A stretch of DNA of 64,000 nt from Candidatus Anderseniibacteriota bacterium (lineage in GTDB: Bacteria > Patescibacteriota > JAUYIX01). Below are positions 10,505 to 57,736 of the stretch, piece after piece. The stretch covers positions 10,491 through 74,490 of the forward strand of contig JAXLZM010000004.1 in the NCBI GenBank assembly GCA_046350855.1, given 5' to 3'. The translations under genes were made by a program, and so were the position numbers. A model generated the notes under the pieces. That model searched no databases, was not told the origin of the DNA, and saw only the letters and a program-made list of their open reading frames with translations. The number at the start of each line of letters is the position of its first letter. Within the stretch, counting starts at the first letter, position 1.

Positions 10505-10533
10505 ATTGACAAAGAGGGTTTAGCGTGCTATTA
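10505..10533 (+). promoter_or_regulatory. Consensus-like sigma-70 promoter for the M23/CWB2 gene
   Basis: TTGACA (10505-10510), a 17-nt spacer, then TATTAT (10528-10533). It lies about 58 nt upstream of the GTG start at 10592. Confidence 0.5.
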
Positions 10534-10591
10534 TATAGCGTTATCACTTCACGATAATTTAGCGTAGTCTTTAGTATTACTTCCTACACAC

Positions 10592-39857: not shown

Positions 39858-41332
39858 ACGGTTGAACCTGATCGTGGGGAGTATACCGGTTTTGTTTGGG
39901 TAAGCAACACGATTAAGCACGTCACCGTCAGATACAAAGTGGGTACCAGGTGCAGCATAAGTCGATCGAGCGAAGTCGTAATATGCCAGGTCAAATCGTG
40001 CGGACTGGTCACGTACACCACACCATAGGTCGCGAGTTGCGCTCCGAGGAGCCCCAGTGGGGCGAGCCACACTAGTGGCCGGCGCTGAGTGCGCCACCAC
40101 GCCACGACCACTGGTACAAGCAAGGTCATCGGCAAAATCGCCCACCCCCAGTGGTCCACCCGTGGCCACTCACTCAAAAACCAGTGCGTCACCTCGATCA
40201 CCTGGTTCAGATAAAATTGCACGGTCCGATTGAGCCCGGGCAAGAGCAAATCAACCCGGTAGCCCTGCCTCACTTTGATCCCATGCCATAGTACGACCGG
40301 CAGAACCAACGTTGCCAGGACCGGTAGCGCAGCGGTCGCCCACCAGATCAATGGCGTCGAGCGCTCGTGGGTCTCGACTGATACCACACGCCGCCGCGTC
40401 AACCAAACTGCCGAGAGTCCCACCACCAGATAGAGCAAGGCAAAGGCACTCCCCTCATTTTTGATCGAAAGTGCGGCCAGGGCCGGCGAGAGTCCCAACA
40501 AAAACCAAAGCCAAGGCGTTTGGCGGTTGGTGATGCGACTAGTTGCAAGACCCAGCAGCGCAACCGTCGCGGCCAAAAACAGACTAGCAAGGGGCACGTC
40601 TGCTAAGCCAAGGCCCGCAAAGAGCATGGGGTCCCCGGCCAGTAAAATCAAAAAGAGTGCTGCTCCGAGTCCAAAGATCGCAAAGCGTAAGCGTCGCTCG
40701 GGGTTCAAGACACGCTCCAGTGCACCACCGGTCAAGACAAGCAAGAGCCAAAAAAAGGTCACGTACGTAAGGGCGACGGGTTGCTCGCTCACCCCACCAA
40801 ACCATTGGTAGTGCGCCGCCACCAAGGCCGGGAACCCCAATGGATAATCTTTGTGGGCCGAGCTAAACAGGTCGCTCTCATAGAGTGTGTTAGGGACGTG
40901 CTGTTGGACATAGATGGCCTTAGCCTTGAGAACCCAAATCATTTTGGCGTCCCAGGAGGTCAAGGGGTAGAGCACTGCGTTAACCGCGATGGGTGCGACC
41001 AAAATGAGCGAGAGGAGGAGTAACCCAAGTTGTGAGCGGTTGGGTACGAGCAGGCGGACGAGGGTCCAGCGCCCGCGCGCCAACGCAAGCAAAAGGCTTA
41101 CCAATCCGACCACCCCAAAGCCCCAGGCTACGACTGGACTGGCAGAAAAATGAGCGTTGAGAAGCAGTGCCGTAACAAACGCCGCGTACACCCCCAGCCC
41201 CACTACCAGAGAAAACCCAATCGTAAGCAGGAGATTGAGCCGCAAACGCAGCACAAACCAAATTACGATCCCCAGGCCACCGAGACCCAGCAGCACCAAG
41301 AGTAAGGCTGTCTTAAGCAAGAGAATCGTCAT
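39854..41332 (-). CDS. Multi-pass membrane protein, a candidate GT-C-fold glycosyltransferase (PMT/ArnT/DUF2029-like)
   Basis: About 12 TM helices and 492 aa. It is translationally coupled to the GT2 gene downstream of it. Assignment rests on topology and context only. Confidence 0.5.
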
Positions 41333-41899: not shown

Positions 41900-42469
41900 T
41901 TACTGAGTCGCGTTGTTAGTGGCGTTGCTGGTGTTATTGGTCTCGTTGGTGGCGTTTGACGTGTTAGCCGGTGTGGTATTAGCGGCGTTACCCGTGCTGT
42001 TTGTCGCGTTCTTGGTGTCAGGGTTCAAGACGACGGGTGCCACGTTGATGATGCGGTTCTCCGAGGTACGGAAGATAATGGCCTCTGTGCTGTAGAGCAA
42101 CAAGGTGTCACCGTTACGAGCATTTTTGTAGAACGACTCGTTAGCCGCACGTAGCTTGTCGACATCCGTAATCGTAGCGACGGTTGGCTTATCCTCAGGC
42201 ACCAAGATCAACTTAGAAACACTATTGATCACGTTTTGGCTAGCTTCCTCAGCCAATTTAGTCTGGGCCTCAGGCTTCTTGAGGGACATGTTTTGCCAGT
42301 ACATATAGGCAAGTCCACCAGCGAGAGCGAGAACGAGGACCCAAAGAATAATGGTCATCGCGCCAAAGCGGCGACGAGAAGTTTTTTTTGCGGGAATTGG
42401 ATCTGGCACGGGGGTGAGAGGTGAATAATTAGTCCCCGTATCATAACGAGAGGGACCCTGGTACGTCAA
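41900..42469 (-). CDS. Hypothetical membrane-anchored protein with an Asn/Thr-rich C-terminal tail
   Basis: TM segment (MTIILWVLVLALAGGLAYMYW). The tail reads NATNSTGNAANTTPANTSNATNETNNTSNATNNATQ. Confidence 0.5.
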   Translation of the reverse strand: MTYQGPSRYDTGTNYSPLTPVPDPIPAKKTSRRRFGAMTIILWVLVLALAGGLAYMYWQNMSLKKPEAQTKLAEEASQNVINSVSKLILVPEDKPTVATITDVDKLRAANESFYKNARNGDTLLLYSTEAIIFRTSENRIINVAPVVLNPDTKNATNSTGNAANTTPANTSNATNETNNTSNATNNATQ

Positions 42470-42531: not shown

Positions 42532-43008
42532 ATGCGTAAAGCCTGGATTGTTCCGCTCCTGCTTATCATTGGACTGGTAGCCACCGTCGGCTGGATCATA
42601 CGCGCGCCGCGTCAGCAGTCATTTTTGCCGGCAGAACTGGCGGGTAAAATTACTTTTACGGTCTACGCCCCAAAAACAATGCCGACGGGGTTCAGCCTCA
42701 AAACGGACTCACTACGGTATCAGGAGGGTGTGCTGCTGTTGGATATTACGTCCCCCATCGCAGATGAACCCCTGGTCGTAAGCGAGCAAGCTCGACCGCA
42801 GGATTTTAAATTTGAAGATTTCTATAAAGATTTTTTTGGCAGCACTAAGACCACTAATGAATTGGGTGAGCTCGTAGTCGGGACTGTGCGCAATCAGACG
42901 ATCGCTAGTTTGCTAACGGACACAACGTGGGTCTTGATTACCGGTTCAAAAAACATCGAGTTTGCGACCGTCAGTGAACTGGCCAAATCTCTCGCACCGG
43001 TTAACTAA
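42532..43008 (+). CDS. Hypothetical membrane-anchored protein (158 aa)
   Basis: N-terminal TM segment (IVPLLLIIGLVATVGWII). It converges on the giant gene with a 16-nt gap. Confidence 0.55.
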   Translation: MRKAWIVPLLLIIGLVATVGWIIRAPRQQSFLPAELAGKITFTVYAPKTMPTGFSLKTDSLRYQEGVLLLDITSPIADEPLVVSEQARPQDFKFEDFYKDFFGSTKTTNELGELVVGTVRNQTIASLLTDTTWVLITGSKNIEFATVSELAKSLAPVN

Positions 43009-43024: not shown

Positions 43025-46000
43025 TTATTTCTTGCTGACCGTACAAAACGAGCCACGTTTTACTGTAACGGCTGAGGTTGCAACCTCGCTACGATAGCGG
43101 ACGGCGAGGGTACCGTTGGCAGATGGAATAATCGAGCCGGTAAGATGCACACCTAAGCGAGTAGCACCGCCACCTGTGGCAGGGTTGGTATTAGTATCGT
43201 AAGCCGTCTGGGCGGCATTATGCACAGCGGTTGCCGTCGTATCAGTCAATACTTCGTAATCAAGAGCGGTTGTCGTCGGACCGTTGAGGGAGAGTTGCAA
43301 TGCAGTAGTAGAAACAGCGGTCGTATAAGTCATGTCACATGAAAACACATAGGTGAACCCGCTCGTCACGGCTGTGGTCAAGCCTGTCACATCGGCAAAC
43401 GTAGTCGTACTTTGCGATACATCAGATGACACGTATAAGACCGTGGTCAGACAATCACCCCAAGCACCGTTTTCGTAGCAGCGCATCTTGTTAGCGTTAG
43501 AGTTATAGTACATCGCCCCGTTGGTACCAGTTGGATCACCGGAGCCTGTTTTGGTATCCAAGACAACAAGCGTACCAGTGGTATCGGAGGTACCGACGGT
43601 GACGTTACCGGAGCCGTTTGGAGAAAAGTTGAGGTCTTCGTTAGAGATGGTGGTGATGTCGTTGGTAACGCTGGAGAAGGTCAATTGACCGGTGGAGGAA
43701 ACATCAAAGTTGGTAAAGTCAATTACCGCGGTAGAACCAGAGATCGTGTTGCCACCCAAATCAAGGGCGTTAGTGATGTTAGTAGCGGAGGCATCGATGG
43801 CAGTGGTCATACTCGTACTGCTTGCTGCAACAAAGCGAAGTCCCGTTTTGTCGGTACTCGATTGGTTATCCAGTTGGAACAAAAAGTTTGAGTCCGTTCC
43901 TGAGGCGGAGGGGTTTTGGATGGCGATTGAGTCGTCCGCCGTGGTGAGTGGGATGGTGACGTTACTGCCGTCCACGTCGTTATCGTAGGCACTCGGGAGC
44001 GTGAGTGTACCGGCACTCGTGTCACAGTCTTTCCAGGCGCCGTTTTCAAAGCAGCGGAACTTAGCCCGTGCACCGCTATAGTAGACTGCCCCGTCAAAGC
44101 CGGTTGGATCGGTCACACCACCTCCAACACTTTTAACATCTACTCCCAACAAGTCTGGCGTTGTGGAACCGCTACCACCCGCACCGATCTGGACGTTGGC
44201 CGTGGTACCCGAGCCCGCGGGCTGGAAGCTCACGTTACCGCTCGAGGTGTTGAGGTTGAGGCCTGAGTTACCGTTGACCGTCAGTGCCCCTGCAGCGGTC
44301 GACCAGGTCGCGGCCGCGGCTGAGGTAAGCGTCAAGGCACCACTCGAGGTAGACCAGGTCGAGGCCGCTCCAGCCGTAAAGGTCAAAGCCCCGCTCGAGG
44401 TAAATTGCGAAGCCGCGGTGGGGGTCAGGTTGACGCTACCCGCACCCGAGGCGTTAAAGTTGCCTGAGGTCAATGTAAAGGCGATGTTGGTCGAACCAGC
44501 GGTCGTGATGGTAGCACCTCCGTTATACGCACCTTGCAAGGTAGTCACACCAACATCCGCACCACAGGCCCAGACGTCGGATGTTTCATTCCATTTAAGA
44601 ATTTCTGTATCAGCACAACCCTGGAGGAGCGCAACACCCGAGGCAAGAATCTCCATGCCGGAACCAGACGAAGTGGTTGAGGATAAGCCGTTGGCAGAGG
44701 GTGCGACGGTCAGGGCGATATCTCCGGCGTTGACCACGATGCCGCCGTTGGCCGAGACCACATCGATGGTTGGGGTGGAGCCTTCGCCCGAGGCATTGCC
44801 GGTCAAACCCGCACCCGCGGTAAAGCTGGCAACATAGTTGCCAGTGGTATCGGTTGTAAGTGCAACGGAGTCTGCACCCACCGTAAGACCACCGCTGAAT
44901 GAGCCCGTGATATCCCCCGCTGCAGGTGATTCACCCACGTTGACATACACTGAGTCGAGCGTACTGGTGTAGTTGGCGTCGGTGAGCACTGTACCGGTGC
45001 TACCACTGAGGGTATAGGTAGCGTTAGCCGACAAGTCACCGACGTCTACGGTACCAAAGAAGGTCGCACCAGCCGATTCAAGAATTTTGAGCTCGGAGGA
45101 AGCGTTGTTGAGACTGATATCAAAGGCACCGGTTTGGTTCCAGTCCGCCGTCAGAGGACCGAGCGCGATGTCATCCGCATTGACGGTGATTCCACTTCCT
45201 GCACCCACAGCCACGGTCGGGGTTGAGCCTTCGCTACTGACGGTACCAGTCAATCCTCCACCGGCAGTGAGTGTTGCGACATAGTTACCCGTGGTATCTG
45301 TGGTGAGCGCAACTGAGTCGGCGCCAACGGTCAGGCCACCAGAAAAACTACCGGTTATATCAGCTGCCGCTGGTGACTCACCCACGTTAACGTACACCGA
45401 GTCTAATGTGCCGGTGTAGTTGGCATCGGTCAGGACTGTGCCTGTGCTGCCACTGAATGTGTACGTGGCGTTAGCCGCCAAGTCGCCGACATCCAGTGTG
45501 CCAAAGAAGGTGGCGCCTGCGGATTCCAGAATCTTGAGCTCGGAGGAGGCATTGTTGAGGGAGATATCAAAGGCCCCGGTCTGGTTCCAGTCCGCCGTCA
45601 GAGGACCGAGCGCGATGTCGTTAGCGTTGACGGTGATGCCGCTGTTAGCGCCAATGTCGAGGGCGCTACCGTTGGCCGCCAAACCCGCACCGGCCAAGGT
45701 CGACTCGGAGATATCAAAGGTGGCGGTTTCTGGGTTATCGGCGCCGGTAATGGTTAAGTTCGTCCCCGTGACCAGCAATTGTAGGGTGTCGGTGGCCGTG
45801 TCCGCGACCGGATCGGTTCCTGAGGGAGTATCGATCGTGGCAAAGCTATTTGTGCTAGTGCCAGCAGTTCCACAGGCCCAGACGTCACTCGCCTCATTCC
45901 ACTTGAGCACCTCGGTGTCGGCGCACCCCTGGAGAAGCGCCACGCCTGAGGCAAGAATTTCCATCCCTGAGCCCGAGGAGGTCGTGGAGGACAAGCCGTT

Positions 46001-49000
46001 GGCCGACGGGGCGACGGTTAGAGCAATGTCACCGGCGTTGACCACGATGCCGCCGTTGGCCGAGACCACATCGATCGTTGGGGTGGAGCCTTCGCCCGAG
46101 GCGTTACCCGTAAGACCCGCTCCGGCCGTAAAGCTCGCGACATAGCTACCGGTTGTGTCCGTTGTGAGCGCGACGGAGTCGGCCCCGACGGTAAGACCAC
46201 CCGAAAAGCTCCCAGTTATGTCAGCTGCAGCCGGTGACTCGCCAACGTTGACGTAGACCGAGTCCAGGGTCCCCGTGTAGTTAGCGTCGGTTAAGATCGT
46301 GCCAGTTGAACCACTGAGCGTGTAGGTAGCGTTGGCTGCGAGATCGCCAACATCTAACGTCCCAAAGAAGGTCGCTCCAGCTGACTCTAAGATCTTAAGC
46401 TCGGACGACGCGTTGTTAAGAGAAATATCGAATGCACCCGTTTGGTTCCAGTCCGCGGTGAGCGGACCAAGTGCGATGTCGTCGGCATTAACGGTTATAC
46501 CGCTCCCAGCACCCACGGCAACCGTAGGAGTGGAACCCTCACTACTGACTGTGCCCGTGAGCCCGCCACCTGCGGTAAGGGTGGCGACGTAGTTACCCGT
46601 GGTATCCGTTGTGAGCGCTACAGCATCTGCGCCGACGTTCAGCCCGCCGGAGAACGAGCCCGTAATATCACCCGCAGCTGGAGACTCTCCGACATTTACG
46701 TAGACCGAGTCTAATGTGCCCGTGTAGTTAGCGTCGGTTAAGATCGTGCCAGTTGAGCCGCTCAATGTATATGTCGCGTTTGCAGAAAGATCACCCACGT
46801 CTAACGTCCCAAAGAACGTAGCCCCTGCAGACTCCAAAATCTTGAGTTCAGAGCTGGCATTGTTGAGAGAAATATCAAACGCACCGGTTTGATTCCAGTC
46901 TGCCGTCAAAGGACCCAGTGCGATGTCGTCAGCATTGACCGTGATGCCGCTACCAGCTCCGACCGCCACGGTTGGTGTGGAGCCCTCACTGCTCACGGTC
47001 CCAGTTAAACCTCCGCCTGCGGTAAGGGTGGCGACGTAATTGCCAGTTGTGTCCGTTGTAAGAGCCACAGCGTCGGCACCAACATTCAAACCACCCGAGA
47101 AGCTTCCCGTAATATCTCCGGCCGCAGGTGATTCACCCACGTTGACGTAGACCGCATCAAGCGTGCCAGTATAGTTAGCGTCCGTCAGGATAGTGCCGGT
47201 AGAACCGCTGAGCGTGTAGGTGGCGTTGGCTGCGAGGTCACCGACATCAAGGGTGCCAAAGAAAGTGGCTCCGGCTGACTCCAGAATCTTGAGTTCGGAA
47301 CTGGCATTGTTGAGAGAAATATCGAAAGCACCGGTTTGGTTCCAGTCAGCCGTTAAAGGACCAAGTGCGATGTCATTGGCGTTGACGGTGATGCCACTGC
47401 CGGCTCCAATGTCCAAAGCGCTTCCGTTAGCAGCAAGGCCGGCGCCCGCTAGCGTGCTCTCTGAGATATCAAACGTAATCGTCTCTGGGTTGTCCGCACC
47501 GGTGATCGTCAGATTGGTGCCAGTCGCCAAGAGTTGCACGGTGTCGGTCGCGCTGTCAGCAACCGGATCGGTACCAGCTGGGGTATCGATCGTGGCAAAA
47601 CTGTTGGTACCGGTGCTGCTATCTGCGCTACAGGCCCACACGTCGGAAGCCTCATTCCATTTGAGGATCTCTGTGTCTGCACAACCTTGCAAGAGAGCCA
47701 CACCGGAGGCCAGGATTTCCATGCCAGAGCCAGAGGATGTGGTTGAAGAAAGGCCGTTTGCAGACGGAGCAACGGTCAGTGCGATATCGCCCGCATTAAC
47801 GACGATACCCCCATTTGCAGACACAACATCGATGGTTGGGGTCGAGCCCTCACCGCTGGCGTTACCAGTTAGTCCAGCTCCTGCTGTAAAACTCGCGACA
47901 TAGCTACCGGTTGTATCCGTCGTTAGCGCAACCGCGTCTGCCCCAACGTTGAGCCCACCCGAGAAGCTTCCCGTAATATCACCGGCTGCCGGCGACTCAC
48001 CTACGTTGACGTAGACCGAGTCCAGAGTGCCGGTATAGTTGGCGTCCGTCAGGATCGTTCCGGTAGAACCACTGAGGGTATACGTTGCATTTGCAGCGAG
48101 ATCGCCTACGTCCAGCGTGCCAAAGAATGTCGCTCCTGCCGACTCTAAAATTTTGAGCTCGGAGCTTGCATTATTGAGTGAAATATCAAAAGCACCCGTC
48201 TGGTTCCAGTCAGCCGTCAGGGGTCCAAGTGCAATGTCATCGGCATTGACGGTGATGCCACTGCCGGCACCCACAGCCACGGTCGGGGTTGAGCCCTCGC
48301 TGCTAACCGTGCCGGTCAAGCCGCCACCGGCGGTCAATGTTGCCACGTAGTTACCGGTGGTGTCGGTCGTAAGAGCAACGGCATCCGCGCCGACGTTCAG
48401 CCCGCCGGAGAAAGAACCAGTGATGTCCCCTGCAGCCGGCGACTCACCTACGTTGACATACACTGCATCGAGGGTACCCGTGTAGTTTGCATCGGTAAGA
48501 ACCGTACCGGAACTACCACTGAGGGTGTAGGTGGCATTGGCCGCTAAGTCACCCACATCGAGTGTGCCAAAGAACGTTGCTCCAGCAGATTCCAGGATTT
48601 TAAGCTCGGATGATGCATTGTTGAGACTAATGTCAAAAGCACCCGTTTGGTTCCAATCTGCCGTCAGAGGGCCTAGTGCAATATCGTTAGCGTTAACCGT
48701 GATACCGCTGCCGGCGCCAATGTCGAGGGCGCTACCGTTAGCAGCAAGGCCTGCGCCCGCTAAGGTTGACTCTGAAATATCAAACGTGATCGTCTCGGGA
48801 TTATCAGCGCCCGTTATCGTCAGGTTGGTGCCGGTCGCCAAGAGCTGTAGTGTATCGCTCGCACTATCCGCAACCGGATCGGTACCCGCCGGTGTATCGA
48901 TCGTGGCAAAGCTGTTAGTGCCCGTGCTGCTATCGGCACTACACGCCCAAACATCTGAGGCTTCGTTCCACTTGAGTATCTCGGTGTCAGCACAGCCTTG

Positions 49001-52000
49001 GAGTAGGGCTACACCAGATGCCAAAATCTCCATGCCCGATCCAGAAGACGTCGTCGAGGAGAGACCGTTAGCAGAGGGTGCGACGGTGAGCGCGATGTCT
49101 CCGGCGTTGACCACGATACCGCCGTTAGCTGAGACCACATCAATGGTTGGGGTGGAGCCTTCGCCCGAGGCGTTACCCGTAAGACCCGCTCCGGCCGTAA
49201 AGCTCGCGACGTAGTTACCCGTTGTGTCGGTTGTGAGGGCAACGGCGTCCGCTCCGACCGTAAGGCCACCCGAGAAGCTTCCCGTAATATCTCCAGCCGC
49301 CGGTGATTCACCTACATTGACGTAGACCGAGTCCAGAGTGCCGGTATAGTTGGCGTCGGTCAAAATGGTGCCGGTAGAACCACTGAGCGTGTAGGTGGCG
49401 TTGGCTGCCAAGTCACCGACGTCGAGAGTGCCAAAGAAGGTGGCGCCAGCCGACTCAAGGATTTTGAGTTCCGACGATGCATTGTTGAGAGAAATATCGA
49501 AAGCACCGGTTTGATTCCAGTCAGCCGTTAAAGGACCAAGTGCGATGTCGTCCGCGTTAACCGTAATACCGCTCCCCGCGCCCACTGCGACCGTTGGTGT
49601 CGAGCCTTCGCTGCTGACGGTACCAGTGAGACCGCCGCCCGCGGTCAGTGTCGCGACGTAGTTACCCGTTGTGTCGGTGCTGAGGGCCACCGCATCCGCG
49701 CCGACGTTCAGCCCGCCAGAAAAAGAACCCGTAATATCCCCTGCCGCTGGTGACTCGCCGACATTTACATACACCGCATCGAGCGTTCCAGTGTAATTGG
49801 CGTCAGTTAGGATGGTTCCGGTGGAGCCGCTCAGGGTGTAGGTCGCGTTTGCAGCCAAGTCACCGACGTCGAGCGTGCCAAAGAAGGTGGCGCCTGCGGA
49901 TTCCAGAATCTTGAGCTCGGAGGAGGCATTGTTGAGGGAGATATCAAAGGCACCGGTCTGGTTCCAATCCGCCGTCAGCGGACCGAGGGCGATGTTGTCC
50001 GCGTTAACCGTAATGCCACTACCCGTGCCGATGTCGAGAGCTTCACCGTTGAGCGCAAGACCTGCTCCAGCCAAAGCACTCTCAACCAGATCAAACGTGA
50101 CCGTCTCAGGGTTGTCCGCGCCTGTGATCGTAAGGGTGGTGCCGGTTGCTAGCAACTGCACCGTGTCGGTTGGACTGTCCGCCGCTGGATCGGTTCCGGC
50201 CGGGGTGTCGATCGTGGCAAAACTATTGGTGACCGTGTTGCTGTCTGCGGCACAGGCCCAAACGTCGTTTGTCTCATCCCACTTAAGTATTTGTGTGTCG
50301 GCACAACCCTGCAACAACGTCACGCCGGTCCCAAGGATTTCAAGACCAGAGCCAGATGAGGTAGTTGATGAGAGACCATTAGCCGAGGGCGCAACCGTGA
50401 GTGCAATGTCTCCTGCGTTGACGACGATACCGCCATTGGCGGAGACTACATCAATCGTTGGCGTGGAACCCTCACCACTGGCGTTACCAGTCAGTCCGGC
50501 CCCTGCCGTCAAGCTCGCCACGTAGTTACCGGTCGTATCCGTTCCCAGCGCAACAGCATCTGCGCCTACGTTGAGACCACCGCTAAACGAGCCGGTGATG
50601 TCGCCCGCCGCCGGTGATTCACCTACATTGACATACACAGCATCGAGCGTCCCCGTGTAATTTGCGTCGGTTAGGATCGTACCGGTAGAACCACTCAACG
50701 TATAGGTGGCGTTAGCCGCAAGATCGCCTACGTCCAGCGTCCCAAAGAAGGTTGCTCCGGCTGACTCTAAAATCTTGAGCTCGGATGACGCATTATTGAG
50801 GCTCACATCAAAGGCCCCGGTCTGGTTCCAGTCGGCAGTGAGTGGCCCGAGGGCAATGTCGTCGGCATTGACGGTAATGCCACTTCCCGCTCCAATGTCG
50901 AGCGCGCTACCGCTGGCCGCAAGCCCGGCCCCCGCTAATACGCTTTCGACCACATCAAACGTAATCGTCTCGGGGTTGTCGGCACCAGTGATTGTGAGGC
51001 TGGTGCCGGTCGCGAGCAGCTGGAGCGTATCCGAGGTAGAGTCCGCAACTGGATCCGTGCCTGCCGGCGTGTCGATCGTAGTAAAGCTGTTCGAGGGTGT
51101 ATTTGAGTCTGAACTACAGGCCCACACATCGCTGGTCTCGTTCCATTTGAGAATTTCGGTATCGGCACAGCCTTGCAACAGCGCAACGCCAGAGGCAAGA
51201 ATCTCGAGACCCGAGCCTGAGGACGTTGTCGACGACAAGCCATTGGCCGACGCGGCGGTGGTCAGGGCGATGTCACCGGCGTTGACCACGATACCGCCGT
51301 TGGCAGAGACCACATCGATCGTCGGAGTTGAACCTTCGCCAGTTGCATTGCCCGTCAAACCGGCACCCGCGGTAAAACTCGCCACGTAGTCATTGGTTGT
51401 GTCGGTACCGAGTGCGACTGAGTTGGCGTTGACCGTCAAGCCGCCACTAAAGCTGCCGCTGATGTCACCTGCCGCGGGAGACTCACCGACGTTGACGTAG
51501 ATCGGATCCAAGGTTCCCGAGTAATTTGCATCGGTGAGCAGTGTTCCGGACGAACCGCTTAAGGTGTACGTCGCGTTAGCCGCGAGGTCGCCCACGTCGA
51601 GTGTGCCAAAGAAGGTTGCTCCAGCGGACTCTAAGATCTTTAGTTCTGACGAGGCATTGTTGAGTGAGATATCAAACGCGCCGGTTTGATTCCAATCGGC
51701 GGTCAGCGGACCCAAGGTGATGTCGTTGGCATTGACGGTAACCCCACTTCCACTGCCGATATCAAGTGCCTCACCGTTGAGTACCAGACCGGCACCGGCC
51801 AGTACACTTTCCACCAGATCAAACGTAATCGTCTCTGGGTTGTCCGCACCCGTGACGGTCAGGGTTGTACCGGTGGCAATCAGCTGAACGGTATCCGTCG
51901 GGCTATCAGCGACCGGGTCGGTCCCGCTCGGCGTGTCGATCGTGACAAAACTATTGCTCGAGGAGCCGCCCCCGTCAGCGCTACAGGTCCACACATCGCT

Positions 52001-54427
52001 GGCTTCGTTCCACTTAAGAATCTCGGTGTCAGCACAGCCTTGCAGCAAGGCAACTCCGGAGGCGAGGATTTCGAGGCCAGAACCCGATGAGGTCGTCGCC
52101 GAGAGACCATTTGCAGAGGGGGCCGCCGTTAAAGCGATATCCCCGGCGTTGACCACGATTCCCCCATTGGCCGAGACCACATCAATCGTTGGGGTTGAAC
52201 CTTCGCCCGTGGCATTACCCGTGAGTCCCGCCCCAGCCGTAAAGCTCGCCACGTAGTCATTGATCGTATCGGTCCCGAGTGCGACGGCATTTGGGCCAAC
52301 GGTCAAACCTGCTGTGAAACTCCCCGTGATGTCCCCCGCCGCCGGCGACTCACCTACGTTGACATAGATCGGATCCAACGTACCCGAGTAATTAGCGTCG
52401 GTTAGAATTGTTCCGGTAGAACCACTGAGGGTATACGTCGCATTTGCGGCGAGGTCACCGACGTCAAGTGTGCCAAAGAAGGTCGCACCGGCGGACTCGA
52501 GTAGTTTGAGCTCAGAGCTGGCATTGTTGAGTGAGATATCAAAAGCACCGGTCTGGTTCCAGTCAGCGGTCAGCGGACCGAGCGCAATATTGTCAGCATT
52601 AACGGTAATACCACTCCCTGTACCGATATCGATAATTGGATCAGCGGCCGTACCCGAGTTGACCAATCCGGCACCGGCCGTGACGCTCGTAACGGTTCCG
52701 CCAGAATTATTGTCTGCTGCACAGGCCCAAACCGCTCCGGTCCACTTGAGAATCTCATTGGCACCACAAGAAGTAAGCAGTGAGAGCGCCGCCGCTCCCG
52801 AAGCCGTCCCACCCTCGAGCCCGGTGCCAGCCGCGGTCGTGACCGAGGTAATATCCGCACCTTGGATTTGGGCGAGAGCAGACTCTACGTCGTTAGTTGT
52901 GTAAAAATTTCCTGCGTCCGCAATGGGGAGGTCCGCTGCACTGACCTGTCCAGCGCCAGTTCCAAAATTGATGTTGGTATCCCCGATCGTGCCTACCGCG
53001 ACACCGCCCGCTCCCACCGTGATGGTTGCGTCAGCCGCGACCGCAACGACGCTGTTACCCGAGAGTCCCAGACCGTTACCGGTTGCGACCGTGAGTGTGT
53101 CACCCGAGATGGTCAACCCATTGGTGGCGTTGTCATTGATCAGCAAAACATCCGCCGAGATAGAGAGACCGTTGGTGCCTGAGTCGTTGATATCCAAAAT
53201 CGGATCTTGGGCCGTGCCGGAGTTGCCGAGTCCTGAGCCCGCGGTGACAGAGGTGACGGTTCCACCAGAGTTGGCATCAGATGAACACAACCAGGCTGCT
53301 CCCGACCACTTGAGAATCTCCGTAGCGGCACAGCTGGTGAGGAGCGACAAGTTGGCAACGCCACTGGTAACGCCCCCCTCTAATCCGGAACTCGCCCCCG
53401 TCGTAACGGAAGTAATGTCCGCACCTTGGATTTGGGCTAAGGCTGACTCCACGTCGTTGGTCGTATAAAAACCACCCACATCGGCGATCGGGAGATCAGC
53501 GCCCGAGACGGTTCCAACCCCTACGCCAAAAGCGATGTTAGAATCGCCAATAACGCCCACCGCAATACCGCCAGCCCCGACGGAGATGGTTGCATCCGCC
53601 GCGACGGCAACAACCGAGTTTCCCGAGAGACCCAAGCCGTTGCCAGTTGCCACGGTCAGCACGTCCCCTACTAGCGAGAGACCGTTGGTACCGTTATCGT
53701 TAATCGTCAAAATATCCGCGCTGATCGCGAGACCATTAGTAGCCGAGTCGTTGATGTCGATCACCGGATCAGTGGCGGTTCCTGAGTCGGATAGACCCGA
53801 GCCAGCCGTGACACTCGTGACCGTACCCGCCCCGGGCGGTCCCGGGGGCCCTGCTGGACCGGTAGCGCCAGTCGCACCCGTGGCTCCATCTGCTCCGTCG
53901 GCCCCGGTCGCACCATCTGCACCGGCTGGCCCCTGTGGTCCCATGGCGCCCACCACCCCCGGCACACCCTGCGGTCCAATCGAGCCGCTCGCCCCCGCGG
54001 GTCCAGCCGGACCATCGGCACCCGGTGCGCCATCTTTACCGGTTGCACCTCCCGTGCCACCGCTCCCGGCGCCTATAAAGCCACCCAACTGGTCGGGCTC
54101 CAAAATTTGCAACTCGGACCCAGTCCCATCAATACTCGAGCCAAAATTGCTTCCGGCATCACCTTCTTTGAGCAACTTAAACGGCCCGAGAGCTGAACCA
54201 GTCAAATCCAGCGCAGAGAGTGAAATATGTTTAAAGGCAAAAAACGACCAAAAGATCGTCGCTCCAAGCAACAGAATGATCAAAAACAAATACAAAACCG
54301 TGCGCTTTGAGATACCGTCAAGTACCTCAACGACCCCCATGTCTTGCTCGTCCAGTTGCGGTGGAGAAACATAGGGTTTAACACGCTCAAGCGGAGCCCT
54401 GGGAGAAGGAAATTTAGGCGATTCCAA
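43025..54427 (-). CDS. Giant (3,800-aa) membrane-anchored, collagen-like, highly repetitive surface protein
   Basis: A single 11.4-kb ORF with a TTG start; an in-frame ATG lies 29 codons downstream. It has an N-terminal TM segment (LYLFLIILLLGATIFWSFFAF) and about 25 Gly-X-Y triplets (GAPGADGPAGPAGASGSIGPQGVPG...). Tandem 149-aa and 288-aa Thr/Ser/Gly/Ala-rich modules recur about 9 times. The unique C-terminal domain carries two YY(S/N)..RC(F/Y)ENGAW.DC motifs. Confidence 0.8.
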   Translation of the reverse strand: MESPKFPSPRAPLERVKPYVSPPQLDEQDMGVVEVLDGISKRTVLYLFLIILLLGATIFWSFFAFKHISLSALDLTGSALGPFKLLKEGDAGSNFGSSIDGTGSELQILEPDQLGGFIGAGSGGTGGATGKDGAPGADGPAGPAGASGSIGPQGVPGVVGAMGPQGPAGADGATGADGADGATGATGATGPAGPPGPPGAGTVTSVTAGSGLSDSGTATDPVIDINDSATNGLAISADILTINDNGTNGLSLVGDVLTVATGNGLGLSGNSVVAVAADATISVGAGGIAVGVIGDSNIAFGVGVGTVSGADLPIADVGGFYTTNDVESALAQIQGADITSVTTGASSGLEGGVTSGVANLSLLTSCAATEILKWSGAAWLCSSDANSGGTVTSVTAGSGLGNSGTAQDPILDINDSGTNGLSISADVLLINDNATNGLTISGDTLTVATGNGLGLSGNSVVAVAADATITVGAGGVAVGTIGDTNINFGTGAGQVSAADLPIADAGNFYTTNDVESALAQIQGADITSVTTAAGTGLEGGTASGAAALSLLTSCGANEILKWTGAVWACAADNNSGGTVTSVTAGAGLVNSGTAADPIIDIGTGSGITVNADNIALGPLTADWNQTGAFDISLNNASSELKLLESAGATFFGTLDVGDLAANATYTLSGSTGTILTDANYSGTLDPIYVNVGESPAAGDITGSFTAGLTVGPNAVALGTDTINDYVASFTAGAGLTGNATGEGSTPTIDVVSANGGIVVNAGDIALTAAPSANGLSATTSSGSGLEILASGVALLQGCADTEILKWNEASDVWTCSADGGGSSSNSFVTIDTPSGTDPVADSPTDTVQLIATGTTLTVTGADNPETITFDLVESVLAGAGLVLNGEALDIGSGSGVTVNANDITLGPLTADWNQTGAFDISLNNASSELKILESAGATFFGTLDVGDLAANATYTLSGSSGTLLTDANYSGTLDPIYVNVGESPAAGDISGSFSGGLTVNANSVALGTDTTNDYVASFTAGAGLTGNATGEGSTPTIDVVSANGGIVVNAGDIALTTAASANGLSSTTSSGSGLEILASGVALLQGCADTEILKWNETSDVWACSSDSNTPSNSFTTIDTPAGTDPVADSTSDTLQLLATGTSLTITGADNPETITFDVVESVLAGAGLAASGSALDIGAGSGITVNADDIALGPLTADWNQTGAFDVSLNNASSELKILESAGATFFGTLDVGDLAANATYTLSGSTGTILTDANYTGTLDAVYVNVGESPAAGDITGSFSGGLNVGADAVALGTDTTGNYVASLTAGAGLTGNASGEGSTPTIDVVSANGGIVVNAGDIALTVAPSANGLSSTTSSGSGLEILGTGVTLLQGCADTQILKWDETNDVWACAADSNTVTNSFATIDTPAGTDPAADSPTDTVQLLATGTTLTITGADNPETVTFDLVESALAGAGLALNGEALDIGTGSGITVNADNIALGPLTADWNQTGAFDISLNNASSELKILESAGATFFGTLDVGDLAANATYTLSGSTGTILTDANYTGTLDAVYVNVGESPAAGDITGSFSGGLNVGADAVALSTDTTGNYVATLTAGGGLTGTVSSEGSTPTVAVGAGSGITVNADDIALGPLTADWNQTGAFDISLNNASSELKILESAGATFFGTLDVGDLAANATYTLSGSTGTILTDANYTGTLDSVYVNVGESPAAGDITGSFSGGLTVGADAVALTTDTTGNYVASFTAGAGLTGNASGEGSTPTIDVVSANGGIVVNAGDIALTVAPSANGLSSTTSSGSGMEILASGVALLQGCADTEILKWNEASDVWACSADSSTGTNSFATIDTPAGTDPVADSASDTLQLLATGTNLTITGADNPETITFDISESTLAGAGLAANGSALDIGAGSGITVNANDIALGPLTADWNQTGAFDISLNNASSELKILESAGATFFGTLDVGDLAANATYTLSGSSGTVLTDANYTGTLDAVYVNVGESPAAGDITGSFSGGLNVGADAVALTTDTTGNYVATLTAGGGLTGTVSSEGSTPTVAVGAGSGITVNADDIALGPLTADWNQTGAFDISLNNASSELKILESAGATFFGTLDVGDLAANATYTLSGSTGTILTDANYTGTLDSVYVNVGESPAAGDITGSFSGGLNVGADAVALTTDTTGSYVASFTAGAGLTGNASGEGSTPTIDVVSANGGIVVNAGDIALTVAPSANGLSSTTSSGSGMEILASGVALLQGCADTEILKWNEASDVWACSADSSTGTNSFATIDTPAGTDPVADSATDTVQLLATGTNLTITGADNPETITFDISESTLAGAGLAANGSALDIGAGSGITVNANDIALGPLTADWNQTGAFDISLNNASSELKILESAGATFFGTLDVGDLAANATYTLSGSTGTILTDANYTGTLDAVYVNVGESPAAGDITGSFSGGLNVGADAVALTTDTTGNYVATLTAGGGLTGTVSSEGSTPTVAVGAGSGITVNADDIALGPLTADWNQTGAFDISLNNASSELKILESAGATFFGTLDVGDLSANATYTLSGSTGTILTDANYTGTLDSVYVNVGESPAAGDITGSFSGGLNVGADAVALTTDTTGNYVATLTAGGGLTGTVSSEGSTPTVAVGAGSGITVNADDIALGPLTADWNQTGAFDISLNNASSELKILESAGATFFGTLDVGDLAANATYTLSGSTGTILTDANYTGTLDSVYVNVGESPAAADITGSFSGGLTVGADSVALTTDTTGSYVASFTAGAGLTGNASGEGSTPTIDVVSANGGIVVNAGDIALTVAPSANGLSSTTSSGSGMEILASGVALLQGCADTEVLKWNEASDVWACGTAGTSTNSFATIDTPSGTDPVADTATDTLQLLVTGTNLTITGADNPETATFDISESTLAGAGLAANGSALDIGANSGITVNANDIALGPLTADWNQTGAFDISLNNASSELKILESAGATFFGTLDVGDLAANATYTFSGSTGTVLTDANYTGTLDSVYVNVGESPAAADITGSFSGGLTVGADSVALTTDTTGNYVATLTAGGGLTGTVSSEGSTPTVAVGAGSGITVNADDIALGPLTADWNQTGAFDISLNNASSELKILESAGATFFGTVDVGDLSANATYTLSGSTGTVLTDANYTSTLDSVYVNVGESPAAGDITGSFSGGLTVGADSVALTTDTTGNYVASFTAGAGLTGNASGEGSTPTIDVVSANGGIVVNAGDIALTVAPSANGLSSTTSSGSGMEILASGVALLQGCADTEILKWNETSDVWACGADVGVTTLQGAYNGGATITTAGSTNIAFTLTSGNFNASGAGSVNLTPTAASQFTSSGALTFTAGAASTWSTSSGALTLTSAAAATWSTAAGALTVNGNSGLNLNTSSGNVSFQPAGSGTTANVQIGAGGSGSTTPDLLGVDVKSVGGGVTDPTGFDGAVYYSGARAKFRCFENGAWKDCDTSAGTLTLPSAYDNDVDGSNVTIPLTTADDSIAIQNPSASGTDSNFLFQLDNQSSTDKTGLRFVAASSTSMTTAIDASATNITNALDLGGNTISGSTAVIDFTNFDVSSTGQLTFSSVTNDITTISNEDLNFSPNGSGNVTVGTSDTTGTLVVLDTKTGSGDPTGTNGAMYYNSNANKMRCYENGAWGDCLTTVLYVSSDVSQSTTTFADVTGLTTAVTSGFTYVFSCDMTYTTAVSTTALQLSLNGPTTTALDYEVLTDTTATAVHNAAQTAYDTNTNPATGGGATRLGVHLTGSIIPSANGTLAVRYRSEVATSAVTVKRGSFCTVSKK
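44000..52300. repeat. Intragenic tandem repeat array with a ~1311-bp composite period (447-bp and 864-bp modules)
   Basis: Identical or near-identical amino-acid strings recur in the main frame and in shadow frames. Shadow-ORF ends (...KLAT, ...(S/R/N)VAT) fall at intervals of 447, 861/864/867 and 1311 bp. Confidence 0.75.
53825..54049 (-). repeat. Collagen-like Gly-X-Y triplet-repeat coding segment within the giant gene
   Basis: Residues about 127-201 of the giant protein form a roughly continuous G-X-Y pattern rich in Pro, Ala and Asp. Confidence 0.7.
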
Positions 54428-54571
54428 GTCGCGGGAAGTGAAAAATTAGACCGAATCTGACTCTAAGAGTCAAGTTCAGTATACGAAAAAATGCGCGGTC
54501 AAGCCACCCCTGATTGAGCCGTTTTCTGGGGACAAACTACCCTGTGGATAACTCGGCACGAGGGCGTTTTC

Positions 54572-55567
54572 TTAGCTTGGCATCGAGAACATAGCTCGCA
54601 CGAGATGTTCTGCCACCGGGAACGGCCGTCCGCGGTAGGGCTGCTCGTGAATATCAAAGCCCGGCGTCTCGTTGATTTCGATCACTGCGTAGTTGCTGAA
54701 CTTGCTGATATCTCTGGCGATCAGATCGATGCCACAAAAACGTAGGCCAAAAATTCGGGCCAGACGCACCGCCATCTTTTTGTACTCGGGATGCACTTTG
54801 TCAGCACACTCAAATGAGCGACCACCGGTACTGACATTGGCATTTTTACGCAGGACAATACGCTTACCCTTGGGTGGGACGAGCTTCTCGGTTAGGTGCT
54901 GCTCGTGCAGGTGCCGTTGCAACTCCAAGTCACGCACGATCGGGCAGAGCGGTTGGTATTTGCCAACTTCCGGCTGCTGATTGTACTGATCAATTAAGCG
55001 GCCGATGCTCAAGACCCCGTCACCAATTACGTAGGCGGGTTTGCGCATCACCACGGTCAAGACCTTTCCATCCAGGACGAGCAGGCGGTAGTCATCGCCT
55101 GGAACAAATTCTTCAACGATAAAAGAGTTGGATTTACCCTTGGTGCGACGGTTGTATTTAAAAACCTCCTCGATGGCGGTCGCCAACCACTTAGTATCCG
55201 TCACGCCCACAAACACGGCACTCCCCTGCGAGCCTTCTACCGGCTTAACCACCAAGGGGAACTTCAAGATACCGTGCCCAACTAGCTCCAGAGCCCGTGT
55301 CACTCTCGTTTCTTTGATACCTGGCGGAACACTAACGCCGTGCTGACGTAAGACACGCTTAACCAAGGCTTTATCGCGCACCAAACGTGCCGAGACCAAA
55401 CGATTGAGGTTGGGCACATCATCGAGTACCAGAATTTTTTTGCTGTTTTTTTGGAATTCGACAACATGGCGCTCCTCATCGAGCACATTTATTGTGACGC
55501 CAAATTTTTGTGCGGCCCTAAACAGGAATCCGACACTTGCCCAGTGACGGGATGATGGTTGCTTCAT
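54572..55567 (-). CDS. ATP-grasp enzyme (RimK / glutathione-synthetase / cyanophycin-synthetase-like ligase)
   Basis: ATP-grasp fold motifs (...FPLVVKPVEGSQGSAV..., EFVPGDDYRLLVLDGKV, NVSTGG). It lies immediately upstream of the giant gene on the same strand. Confidence 0.75.
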   Translation of the reverse strand: MKQPSSRHWASVGFLFRAAQKFGVTINVLDEERHVVEFQKNSKKILVLDDVPNLNRLVSARLVRDKALVKRVLRQHGVSVPPGIKETRVTRALELVGHGILKFPLVVKPVEGSQGSAVFVGVTDTKWLATAIEEVFKYNRRTKGKSNSFIVEEFVPGDDYRLLVLDGKVLTVVMRKPAYVIGDGVLSIGRLIDQYNQQPEVGKYQPLCPIVRDLELQRHLHEQHLTEKLVPPKGKRIVLRKNANVSTGGRSFECADKVHPEYKKMAVRLARIFGLRFCGIDLIARDISKFSNYAVIEINETPGFDIHEQPYRGRPFPVAEHLVRAMFSMPS

Positions 55568-55735
55568 GCAGTTGCGGCTGACGCCTTACGGCGACCACTT
55601 AGCAGTACAACACTTTTTTGCACTTGTCAAGTTGCCAGAGCGTAAAGTCCAATGCGTGCGCACAGTAATTGGATTAAAAACAACAGCTCCGGACCGCATG
55701 GTCCGGAGCTGTATTGCTACTAGAAGAGTACTTAC

Positions 55736-57736
55736 TTACTGGAAGTAGACGGCTTCGACCGCTTGCTTGATGCTGTCAGGCACGACAACCGTTCCACCGT
55801 AGACGTTACCCTCTGCAATAGGGGCTGCGTTGACGGTCAAGTAGTCAGAGGTTGGTGTGGGCAGACTGGTTGGAGTAACCAGCAATAACGGTCGGTTGTT
55901 GAGACCAGAATGACGACCACCGGTCAGGGCATCGGCAAAACCAAGGCCGTTGGCGATACCAATCGTACGCGGTGTATTGGCGCCGCTAAAGAAGGCATCT
56001 GCAATGGCAACCGCGGTTTCAAAACGGTTATTGCCGGCATAGCGATTGACGGTATCGACGTCCATATCCGCTGCCACCATAACCGCATCAGACAACACTA
56101 CCGTTCCACCAACTAAGTCGACCGTATCGAGCGTCCCCGCAACCGAGTCAAAGTAGGAGGAGACCCCGGCATCCAAAGCTTTACTGTCGCTCAACAAGAT
56201 CGGCATAAAGTCTGGGTTGACGGTCTCGGCACTTGCGGCTGCACTGGCGGCTAACGCATCTGGGAAGTTACGCGCATTAGCCAGGATCGCCTCGGACGGA
56301 CCGTTTCCGCGAATCGTGTCCATCTCTGCCGCAACTTTGATCGCAGTTTCGATACGATTATTACCGCCGATACGCTTGATATCAAGGTCTGGGTCAAGCG
56401 CCGCAATTGCGGTCTCAACGTCACTGCTCAAAGCGCTGGTTCCACCAATCAGGTACAAATCTGTTACAGAGTGTGTGTCGTCGACACTATCAAAGACGCG
56501 CGTGATCTCGGCCGCAACGGAAGAATCGAGACTATCTTTGGGGTTAATCAAGAGTGGCGCATCCAGCAAGCCTGCGAGCGGGCCAGCTCCCAGTCCATCC
56601 GGAAAGTCTGCACTGGTCGCAACGACGATGGCATCGGCCGAGTTAGCGGTCGGAAAAGCGTCCTGATCGATCGCGATCGAGGTAGCAACGCGGTTAGCGC
56701 CAGACAAACGGACAAGATCCGTATCGAGCACCGCGTGGAGGCGATAATCAGGCGACGAGAACGTAATGTTATCGACGTTGATCTCTACACCCCCTGAGAC
56801 TTCCTGGGCATTAAACGGAACCGTACTAATCGTACTACCTGTCTCGGTGCGGACCACGCTCAAGCTCGAAGTGTCGATTTCATCCGGCAACAGCCCAAAG
56901 AATCCAGCTACCACTGCGGTTGGCAAAAAGGCCTGCATGCTGCCGACGTTGGGTGTCGTACCATCTGCCAAAAAGTGCGGTGCGCCCAGTGAGGCGACCA
57001 GGTCGGTCGGTCCCTCAGGCGTTTGTTCTGGGGTCACAAAGCCGCCCATGGCGCTCACTAACGCAAAGTACGAACCCGCCACATCCTCACCGTAGCCATC
57101 TTGGTCAAAAAGCATATAGAGACTACCACTCAAAACGTCCATATCGGATTTGGTCGCGTTGCAATGGGGTGGCGTAGCGGTACAAAAATCAAAATCTGAG
57201 CCGGTTCCAAGGGGCGTACGAGCGGGGGTAAGCGTTACATCTACCGAGGCCGCATCGGTACCAAGACCGGCCGTTGCCCAATCTAAGACGACACCGTGGA
57301 TCAGTGAGAAGGTATAGAACTCGTCCAGTTCACCCATATCGGTAAGTACAAGGTGAAACTGAGTCTCATCCGTAATAGGGGTGACACCATCCGGTGCCAT
57401 AGCTCCGGTCAGATCCTGGTGATCGTCATTGAGCCCATCGTGGCGATAGAGCGTGACACCGACAAAACGTCCCTCATCTTGCGCAGCACACACGACCGCA
57501 CCAACCTCACCAACATCGGGGTTGGTTGGATCGGGCACGACTTGGCCATCCACGGTCATGGAGGCAATTACCGGCCGGTCTAATCCAAGATCGTTCCAGG
57601 TAAAGTCGGGTGAACCACTATCACACTGACTCTGGTCGGGCATTGAATCGCCCGCTGCATGTGCCAGATGGGGCACAAAAAATACCGCGGCCACCAAAAC
57701 GGCCAACAGCGCTGTAACACTTTTATATGACTTCAT
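55736..57736 (-). CDS. Secreted surface protein with three C-terminal CWB2 cell-wall-binding repeats
   Basis: Signal peptide (ALLAVLVAAVFFVPHLAHA). The C-terminal half has three repeats of the ANRYETA/ANRVATS...ADALA(A/G)...PLLL type. Confidence 0.7.
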   Translation of the reverse strand: MKSYKSVTALLAVLVAAVFFVPHLAHAAGDSMPDQSQCDSGSPDFTWNDLGLDRPVIASMTVDGQVVPDPTNPDVGEVGAVVCAAQDEGRFVGVTLYRHDGLNDDHQDLTGAMAPDGVTPITDETQFHLVLTDMGELDEFYTFSLIHGVVLDWATAGLGTDAASVDVTLTPARTPLGTGSDFDFCTATPPHCNATKSDMDVLSGSLYMLFDQDGYGEDVAGSYFALVSAMGGFVTPEQTPEGPTDLVASLGAPHFLADGTTPNVGSMQAFLPTAVVAGFFGLLPDEIDTSSLSVVRTETGSTISTVPFNAQEVSGGVEINVDNITFSSPDYRLHAVLDTDLVRLSGANRVATSIAIDQDAFPTANSADAIVVATSADFPDGLGAGPLAGLLDAPLLINPKDSLDSSVAAEITRVFDSVDDTHSVTDLYLIGGTSALSSDVETAIAALDPDLDIKRIGGNNRIETAIKVAAEMDTIRGNGPSEAILANARNFPDALAASAAASAETVNPDFMPILLSDSKALDAGVSSYFDSVAGTLDTVDLVGGTVVLSDAVMVAADMDVDTVNRYAGNNRFETAVAIADAFFSGANTPRTIGIANGLGFADALTGGRHSGLNNRPLLLVTPTSLPTPTSDYLTVNAAPIAEGNVYGGTVVVPDSIKQAVEAVYFQ

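Follow-up and report, generated by a model that had tools for sequence, protein, structure and literature searches.

A giant gene from a Candidatus Anderseniibacteriota bacterium predicted to encode a membrane-anchored surface fibre with a conserved modular stalk and an exchangeable tip

The sequence analysed was a 64,000-nucleotide stretch of DNA (hereafter the window) from an ultrasmall, uncultured Candidatus Anderseniibacteriota bacterium belonging to the Candidate Phyla Radiation (CPR; Patescibacteriota), taken from contig JAXLZM010000004.1 (assembly GCA_046350855.1, positions 10,491 to 74,490, forward strand). An 11.4-kb gene on its minus strand, referred to below as the fibre gene, encodes a hyper-repetitive protein in which a predicted transmembrane (TM) anchor, a collagen-like segment, a long stalk of repeated modules and a C-terminal tip follow one another. 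On balance, the product is probably a very long, membrane-anchored, homotrimeric surface fibre in which a conserved stalk carries a probably glycan-binding tip that is exchangeable. A syntenic ortholog of the same architecture (P0174, 2,862 aa, locus L079) was found in a second genome, intact on a 1.22-Mb JGI contig, and is the main point of comparison.

Layout of the fibre gene and its product

The gene is a single open reading frame (ORF) of 3,800 sense codons, as given in an initial annotation made from the letters of the sequence; the ORF was found to be real and uninterrupted, stop-free from a TTG at position 54427. The first ATG is codon 30 (54338-54340), from which the product is 3,771 aa; residue numbers used here are those of the 3,800-aa ORF counted from the TTG. 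Only a weak GGACGAG stands upstream of the ATG, and no Shine-Dalgarno sequence precedes the TTG. A sigma-70-like promoter is weakly suggested by eye upstream of the gene, overlapping a 13-nt palindrome (GACTCTTAGAGTC, 54459-54471); it was not reported by the promoter scanner, which demands A at position 2 of the -10 hexamer. The features of the gene and the neighbouring genes discussed below are collected in Table 1.

Table 1. Features of the fibre gene and selected neighbouring genes; coordinates are window positions.
Feature	Position	Strand	Residues, basis or remarks
Whole giant fibre gene	43025..54427	minus	uninterrupted ORF, stop codon 43025-43027
Possible sigma-70-like promoter	54445..54473	minus	TTGACT, 17-nt spacer, TCTAAT; by eye only
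Predicted single N-terminal TM anchor	54230..54301	minus	aa 43-66, TVLYLFLIILLLGATIFWSFFAF; hydropathy
Collagen-like segment	53825..54067	minus	aa 121-201, 27 uninterrupted Gly-X-Y triplets; Pfam Collagen E 3.6e-7
Two A repeats (~188 aa each)	52700..53824	minus	aa 202-388 and 389-576; each ends in Cys-loop C..EILKW....W.C
Stalk array (12 B modules, 8 C extensions)	44543..52630	minus	aa 600-3295; repeat analysis
Pre-tip region	43607..44542	minus	aa 3296-3607; short Thr/Ser/Ala-rich, beta-like sub-repeats and first neck motif
First neck motif	44018-44176	minus	aa 3418-3470, Cys 3459/3468
Second neck motif	43445..43606	minus	aa 3608-3661, LVVLDTKTGSGDPTGTNGAMYYNSNANKMRCYENGAWGDC; small beta-hairpin unit (model), one Cys pair
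Tip head	43028..43444	minus	aa 3662-3800 (139 aa); TNF/C1q-like jelly roll (model), Cys pair 3697/3795
Antisense ORFs of 100-280 aa	44163-53468	plus	inside fibre gene, e.g. 47220-47903, 48531-49214, 50706-51389
RimK-like ATP-grasp gene	54572-55567	minus	144 bp upstream of fibre gene
158-aa protein	42532-43008	plus	downstream, convergent; predicted membrane-anchored
189-aa protein	41900-42469	minus	downstream; predicted membrane-anchored
492-aa polytopic membrane protein	39854-41332	minus	no family match
Family-2 glycosyltransferase	39078-40169	minus	downstream of fibre gene
Family-2 glycosyltransferase	37091-37846	plus	downstream of fibre gene
Protein with triple CWB2 repeats	10592-12547
Protein with triple CWB2 repeats	33143-36814
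Protein with triple CWB2 repeats	55736-57736
DsbA-like thioredoxin	61501-62169
Secreted protein	6918-8513		FecR, glucodextranase-B and PKD domains
DUF2207 membrane protein	8535-10547

The anchor proposed in the initial annotation was recovered as the sole strongly hydrophobic segment of the protein, containing its top-scoring Kyte-Doolittle 19-mer (2.49), and the ortholog has an equivalent segment. With K and R just before the helix, an N-in, C-out topology is predicted. The collagen-like run likewise stood, as 27 uninterrupted Gly-X-Y triplets in place of the approximately 25 first counted; the NCBIfam Scl-type collagen-like model (NF038329) scored 30.8 bits over this run against a cutoff of 325. 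The protein contains 24 Cys, all in 12 closely spaced or domain-internal pairs; 52% of its residues are Gly, Thr, Ala or Ser, and it is very acidic (D+E 9.8%, K+R 1.1%). No LPXTG-like motif was found in it.

The stalk is built of three kinds of module. Module sizes of ~149 and ~288 aa had been noted at the outset and were correct, corresponding to B and BC units; the "nine or more" modules were resolved into 12 B modules, and the two A repeats had been overlooked. The B modules (149 aa each) start at aa 600, 889, 1177, 1465, 1614, 1902, 2051, 2339, 2488, 2637, 2924 and 3073, and all 12 contain LTADWNQTGAFD. Seven B cores are followed by a C extension of 138-140 aa (IDVVSANGG...LLQGCADTEILKWNE...ITGADNPETITFD) and an eighth extension (C') is truncated to 74 aa, giving the order BC BC BC B BC B BC B B BC B BC'. 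Homology (41% identity) joins the C-terminal 80 aa of A to the first 74 aa of C, which hold the Cys-loop, and the element C..ILKW....W.C occurs ten times in total across the A and C modules.

Modules B and C had no match in Pfam, NCBIfam, PHROG or PDB, and no sequence search of PDB, whether by the BC module, the C-terminal 527 aa or profile A1 or A2, returned anything meaningful. Whole-protein matches to Pfam HTH_20, Kelch_2, Caudo_bapla_RBP_neck, CagC and others, to two NCBIfam methyltransferase models and HmcD, and to phrog_23039 (function unknown) and a glycosyltransferase family of PHROG were all rejected as spurious: none had a single stretch above threshold, and each was summed repeat noise. 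It had been considered beforehand that the modules might be ordinary Ig/Big domains. There was no Pfam Big/Ig match, no Ig-like sandwich in an AlphaFold2 (AF2) monomer model of one BC unit and no PDB fold match to that model at E<=0.001 (Foldseek; noise only at E>5), and the stalk modules are therefore not Ig/Big domains of a known adhesin family.

The duplicated YY..RC(F/Y)ENGAW.DC motif of the initial annotation is present in the two neck motifs, with Cys pairs 3459/3468 and 3650/3659. The second (LVVLDTK..GDPTG..GAMYYN...RCYENGAWGDC) is the most conserved element across homologs, at 56-77% identity in the eight tested, the ortholog among them. With the C-terminal 527 aa as query, 267 homologs were found, the named ones mostly from Saccharibacteria and other CPR lineages, and in nearly all of the 47 with long matches the last ~190 aa of the query reached to within a few residues of the homolog's own C-terminus.

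An AF2 model of the tip (31-sequence alignment A1; pLDDT 87, pTM 0.76) consisted of a beta-hairpin neck followed by a beta-sandwich. Its fold matched the Photorhabdus TNF-like lectin 9ib6 (10.9), the C-terminal domain of chlamydial Pgp3 (9.1), the Caprin-2 C1q domain (8.7), F-BclA (8.0) and BclA (7.9), the mosaic adhesive trimer (MAT) tips Bd2734 (7.9) and Bd2439 (6.5) of Bdellovibrio, and cyanophage tail fibres (7.9-8.3). On this model the C-terminal head can confidently be assigned the TNF/C1q-like jelly-roll fold, which trimeric proteins are known to have. The earlier statement that no part beyond the collagen-like segment maps to a nameable family thus holds for sequence families and fails at the level of fold. 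The tip sequence itself had no match in PDB.

Constraint on the stalk and exchange of the tip

Within the gene, the B modules share a mean amino acid identity of 90.6% (up to 99%) at a third-position identity of 41%. By the Nei-Gojobori method, synonymous sites are saturated (pS mean 0.73, median 0.74) at a pN of 0.076, giving an ω of ~0.03; two C modules differ by a pN of 0.017 at a pS of 0.75. Observed DNA identity between B modules was 0.750, against 0.716 for fully randomised codons, and identical residues used the same codon at a frequency of 0.41, against 0.35 under random synonymous choice. For calibration, DnaK was set against a relative of 96% identity, which gave a dS of 0.98 and an ω of 0.025. 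The ortholog's own B modules follow the same pattern (85% amino acid identity at pS 0.755); in four more distant relatives inter-module amino acid identity was lower and codon sharing was above the random synonymous expectation. The B/C stalk is under strong purifying selection, as is DnaK, and the array is a striking natural case of repeats that are near-identical in protein with their synonymous sites scrambled.

Other origins of this pattern were considered and set aside. Selection for codon diversification, as a means of recombination avoidance, is an unnecessary assumption, the same-codon frequency being above and not below expectation. A synthetic or back-translated origin is ruled out by the rate of class switches between the TCN and AGY codons of Ser (0.22, against 0.47 if codons were random), by residual exact runs of 41-77 nt that exceed the simulated maximum, and by an independent environmental contig that matches the sequence. 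Recent repeat expansion is ruled out by a dS of ~1 between even the closest module pairs.

Between the window and the ortholog's genome, the B modules are 80% identical, compared with 67.5% for AhpC, 62% for a neighbouring 189-aa protein, 54% for a 1,223-aa protein with CWB2 repeats and 40% for a neighbouring 158-aa protein. Such constraint is unusually strong for a surface protein. That the modules change as slowly as DnaK and are more conserved than AhpC hints that each may make a specific, conserved contact, whether with a partner recurring along the shaft, with the envelope of the cell itself or with a host polymer.

Copy number differs between the two genes. Against the 2 A, 12 B and 8 C modules of the window gene, the ortholog (L079, 10001-18589) has one A, and its array is strictly regular, with seven full BC units of ~289 aa and an eighth with a truncated C. 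Compared with the ortholog, the window gene has five extra B modules that lack a C, and these form a sequence subtype of their own (...ATLTAGGGLTGTVSSEGSTPTV), which suggests that the lineage of the window gene saw the expansion of a B-B-C super-repeat of 437 aa.

The stalk has many relatives. In tblastn searches of GTDB species genomes, 108 were found, both in genomes of the CPR (Saccharibacteria, Moranbacteria, Woesebacteria and others) and in metagenome-assembled genomes (MAGs) labelled, as deposited, Bdellovibrionales, Gammaproteobacteria and, in one case, Aenigmatarchaeota; many lie in ORFs of 2,000-5,400 aa. A profile search of 1.84 billion representative proteins returned 2,038 at E<=1e-3 and 199 at E<=1e-30, of up to 7,185 aa, the majority being from the CPR. 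These relatives carry an N-terminal signal or anchor but differ in their N-terminal and C-terminal domains, and the B/C stalks of other genomes end in other C-terminal domains. The closest stalk relative in GTDB (L002, 74% identity) was set aside, being non-syntenic and cut off at a contig edge. The giant gene families of Omnitrophota (bioRxiv 10.1101/2023.11.21.568195) were also considered and are unrelated, with other domain content.

Among the relatives labelled as outside the CPR, a 930-aa ORF (JACPJU010000001.1, 8765-11557) has B-module stretches up to 70% identical to those of the window; its contig, of 786 kb, bears the deposited label Candidatus Aenigmatarchaeota, a DPANN archaeon. Some relatives in MAGs labelled Bdellovibrionales or Gammaproteobacteria have N-terminal domains very similar to those of Moranbacteria loci. 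Either the modules have been transferred across lineages among tiny epibiotic or predatory organisms, or the labels of these MAGs are unreliable.

The tip has been distributed differently. Identity of the tip head is 74% with the tip of a 350-aa protein that has a Pfam "Phage tail repeat like" domain, and 58-70% with those of nine further proteins, also much shorter than the fibre. No B module was present in these shorter tip-bearing proteins (350-915 aa), and C-module-like stretches were present in only one. With the tip head of the ortholog the identity is only 39%, although the B modules of the two are 80% identical; from this disparity tip swapping is deduced, and stalk and tip have discordant histories as judged from these identities. 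The tip was also found on beta-helix stalks, and the neck motif also in proteins with H-lectin, discoidin, SO2946-like or Gly-rich domains.

Proposed function, neighbouring genes and alternative readings

In the proposed mechanism, the single N-terminal TM helix would hold the chain in the cytoplasmic membrane with the remainder outside the cell, where the 12 Cys pairs could form disulfides. Three chains would associate through the TNF/C1q-like head and the 27-triplet collagen helix; a homotrimer is proposed because such trimer-forming elements stand at both ends. The A/B/C stalk of ~3,100 aa would form a stiff, probably intertwined trimeric shaft and carry the head well past the cell's own wall and S-layer. 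There the head would attach to another cell, its most likely ligand being a glycan on the surface of a host or partner microbe, in the manner of phage tail-fibre tips, the Bdellovibrio MAT fibre Bd2439 and TNF-like lectins, and the neck motif would be the conserved adaptor on which heads are exchanged. Trimer state, membrane topology, surface exposure and glycan or host binding are all putative here. A giant surface fibre or adhesin composed of anchor, collagen, modular stalk and distal tip had been suggested by the initial annotation and fits all of the in-silico tests, with adhesion as its presumed role.

Several points weigh against this reading or limit it. The AF2 monomer model of one BC unit (36-row alignment) was poor (pLDDT 66, pTM 0.32), with only the Cys-loop region ordered, as a four-stranded meander (pLDDT ~80); a poor monomer model is compatible with a shaft that folds only as an oligomer. 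The likeness of the tip to lectins is one of fold only, at 7-15% identity. Conservation of the stalk seems to exceed what a passive spacer needs, and the stalk may have a further function. The choice between the TTG and ATG starts is uncertain. Lastly, an epibiotic lifestyle of Andersenbacteria is assumed from other CPR lineages.

Among the alternatives, a protective or spacing coat comes first: a hair-like nap of collagen-stalked, C1q-headed fibres, like BclA on the Bacillus exosporium, that would shape surface properties, hydration and the avoidance of phages or predators. It is considered unlikely. Tip swapping, and the presence of the tip on many unrelated stalks, fit a determinant of specificity better, and the shaft, with ~3,400 aa between collagen and head, is far longer than that of BclA-type nap proteins. 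Better candidates for a coat or S-layer also lie nearby, in three proteins with triple CWB2 repeats (Table 1). One of these has an M23 peptidase domain; another, the 1,223-aa protein, has weak beta-helix and glycosyl-hydrolase-like matches and is syntenic in the second genome.

A domesticated or remnant tail-fibre gene, whether of a prophage, a tailocin-like particle or a contractile injection system, was weighed next and is very unlikely. Foldseek comparison of the tip model with viral models (BFVD) gave 125 matches at E<=1e-3, the top ones to Caudovirales proteins annotated "Collagen triple helix repeat" and others to tail fibres of Gordonia, Streptomyces and Microbacterium phages. Caudovirales tail fibres commonly have this tip fold and couple collagen to such a tip; the closest tip by sequence, as described above, is on a protein with a phage tail repeat domain, and the neck motif occurs in IMG/VR viral contigs, at four loci that have this motif alone in common with the fibre. 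Against this, the tip gave no tblastn match in 50,697 phage genomes, the protein begins with a TM anchor in place of a baseplate-attachment domain, and typical single tail-fibre proteins are several times shorter than 3,771 aa. The other genes of the window are chromosomal (DnaK, DnaJ, Mur ligase, PBP, UppS, YceG, POR, glycosyltransferases and AhpC), with five scattered tRNAs and nothing further in an Rfam scan; no phage structural gene module surrounds the fibre gene, whose neighbours are ATP-grasp, CWB2, AhpC, glycosyltransferase and DnaK genes, and a PHROG search of 10 unknown neighbouring ORFs gave no match. Synteny around the gene is kept in the second genome, and the codon usage of the fibre gene is native. 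On these housekeeping and envelope neighbours, the empty PHROG search, synteny and codon usage, the fibre gene is cellular and not part of a prophage.

An S-layer or cell-wall matrix protein, the other possibility raised in the initial annotation, would be very large, acidic and repetitive, as this protein is, and secreted, as it is predicted to be, and the region is rich in envelope genes. The Pfam scan found no CWB2, SLH or other wall-binding domain in the fibre protein, while CWB2 repeats are carried by the three neighbours, which are better S-layer or wall candidates; the sequence of collagen, shaft and putatively trimeric head also points to a fibre and not to a two-dimensional lattice. 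The S-layer alternative is not supported and is given very little weight.

The weakest alternative takes the ORF for a pseudogene or for a chimera of the assembly, with no such protein being made. The source sequence is metagenome-assembled, the exact 3,771-aa product is absent from a 15-billion-protein collection, and assemblies with short k break within the gene. The B modules differ by 25% in DNA and their longest common exact run is 77 nt, so that repeat collapse or mis-joining is unlikely; the lack of longer identical DNA between copies is presumably why the gene assembles. An independent Logan assembly contig (SRR26348421) aligned to window positions 52148-56782 without gaps at 99.89% identity, covering only the first 2.3 kb of the gene. 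With this partial corroboration, an intact ortholog, 3,800 stop-free codons and a codon-level selection signature (inter-module ω ~0.03) from which translation of the reading frame follows, the initial concern over a chimera or frameshifts was not borne out, and an artefact is extremely unlikely. The antisense ORFs inside the gene (Table 1) recur with the repeat period and look like by-products of a repetitive, stop-poor sequence rather than genes.

Several further neighbours deserve description beside the membrane-anchored fibre favoured here. The 158-aa and 189-aa proteins are encoded beside the ortholog as well (40% and 62% identity, respectively), have no family match and might act with the fibre or help to assemble it. 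The DsbA-like thioredoxin fits extracytoplasmic disulfide formation, which is relevant to the 12 Cys pairs. The RimK-like ATP-grasp gene is on the same strand as the fibre gene; at the ortholog locus no such gene stands in this place, and a functional link to the fibre is doubtful. The 492-aa polytopic protein adjoins the two glycosyltransferases, and none of the genes compared at the ortholog locus corresponds to it; that these three form a lipid-linked sugar pathway glycosylating extracellular Thr/Ser-rich proteins such as the fibre is pure speculation. Two further envelope proteins were recorded near the start of the window, a DUF2207 membrane protein and a secreted one whose domains are FecR, glucodextranase-B and PKD.

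Hosts are unknown for almost all CPR bacteria, and molecules of partner recognition beyond type IV pili have barely been described. Work on Saccharibacteria has reported type IV pili together with unspecified adhesins, and a genetic screen notes "multiple adhesins" (PMC10633639, PMC11665869); no description of fibres such as this one was found in the literature on CPR bacteria. The fibre gene is a plausible candidate for the means by which CPR bacteria recognise the cells on which they live. A conserved stalk with a swappable, lectin-like tip would offer concrete candidates for host specificity, and the tip families can be tracked across metagenomes. There is also an annotation gap, in that neither the 2,038 representative clusters reached by the stalk profile nor the 267 proteins reached by the tip query are represented in Pfam, NCBIfam or PDB. 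A wider proposal, held only tentatively and considered rather improbable as it stands, is that fibres with A/B/C stalks and exchangeable neck-plus-head tips serve CPR bacteria in general for host recognition, and perhaps also other tiny lineages of epibiotic or predatory habit with MAGs that contain these modules; if so, the tip would set host range. The stalk may in addition be more than a spacer.

Comparison with known systems

Trimeric autotransporter adhesins (YadA, BadA) are, like the fibre, very long and repetitive "lollipops" with a modular stalk, and a homotrimer is proposed for the fibre as well. Their outer-membrane beta-barrel anchor is C-terminal and their head N-terminal, whereas the fibre protein has an N-terminal TM helix and a C-terminal head, and the Pfam scan detected none of their domains in it. 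The streptococcal proteins Scl1 and Scl2 share with it a bacterial collagen-like triple helix in a surface protein; in them the variable head is N-terminal and the LPXTG anchor C-terminal, and the topology of the fibre, which lacks LPXTG, is the opposite.

Tail fibres of Caudovirales share the neck-plus-head fold of the tip (BFVD E 1e-10 to 1e-7, TM ~0.6), the set compared being from uncultured phages, from Gordonia, Streptomyces and Microbacterium phages and from cyanophages A4 and A-1(L). They also carry collagen repeats within the same proteins, have evolved in a mosaic, modular way as the fibre has, and are fibres that end in a head of this fold, as the window protein does with its putatively trimeric tip. 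The window fibre differs in its non-phage context, its membrane anchor, the lack of a phage attachment domain and its far greater length, and tblastn revealed no match to it at the sequence level among genomes of cultured phages. Proteins of the BclA, F-BclA and ExsJ type (Bacillus exosporium and Ena fibre tips) have in common with it a collagen GXY region and a C-terminal C1q/TNF-like head, trimeric in BclA-type proteins and probably so here. BclA has its head immediately after the collagen and an N-terminus that directs it to the exosporium basal layer; in the fibre protein ~3,400 aa of unrelated stalk intervene, and a predicted membrane anchor forms the N-terminus.

MAT fibres are trimers exposed at the cell surface, conserved at the proximal end and swappable at the tip, where some have TNF-like lectin heads; one binds GlcNAc-containing glycans, and lectin function has been shown for the MAT fibre Bd2439 (Caulton et al. 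2024, PMC10769870). Like the window fibre, those of Bdellovibrio bacteriovorus (Bd2439, Bd2734) are long cellular, non-phage fibres, made by a bacterium that lives on bacteria; the variable C-terminal tip of the window fibre has the TNF-like head of the MAT superfamily, and tip swapping has been deduced in both. MAT proteins are of ~600-1,100 aa, with a common globular N-terminal domain and a diderm maker (PMC10769870), whereas the window fibre is of 3,771 aa, starts with a TM helix and collagen, has its own A/B/C modules and belongs to a Gram-positive-like CPR envelope. Features of the MAT superfamily include a conserved N-terminal domain by which the fibre is held on the predator and an intertwined, homotrimeric shaft of beta-prism or beta-helix form. 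Compared by description (PMC10769870), its N-terminus of TM helix, linker and collagen does not fit the globular MAT domain, and phmmer and profile searches of PDB chains with stalk and tip returned no MAT entry at E<=10.

In fold and design logic the fibre protein would work as phage tail fibres and MAT fibres do, and its combination of collagen with a C1q-like head is that of BclA. It is not filed as a member of the MAT, phage-fibre, BclA or Scl groups, because it has no MAT sequence homology and a different N-terminus, is not set in a phage module, has its head apart from its collagen and lacks LPXTG. The MAT family is the closest worked example for the mechanism proposed here.

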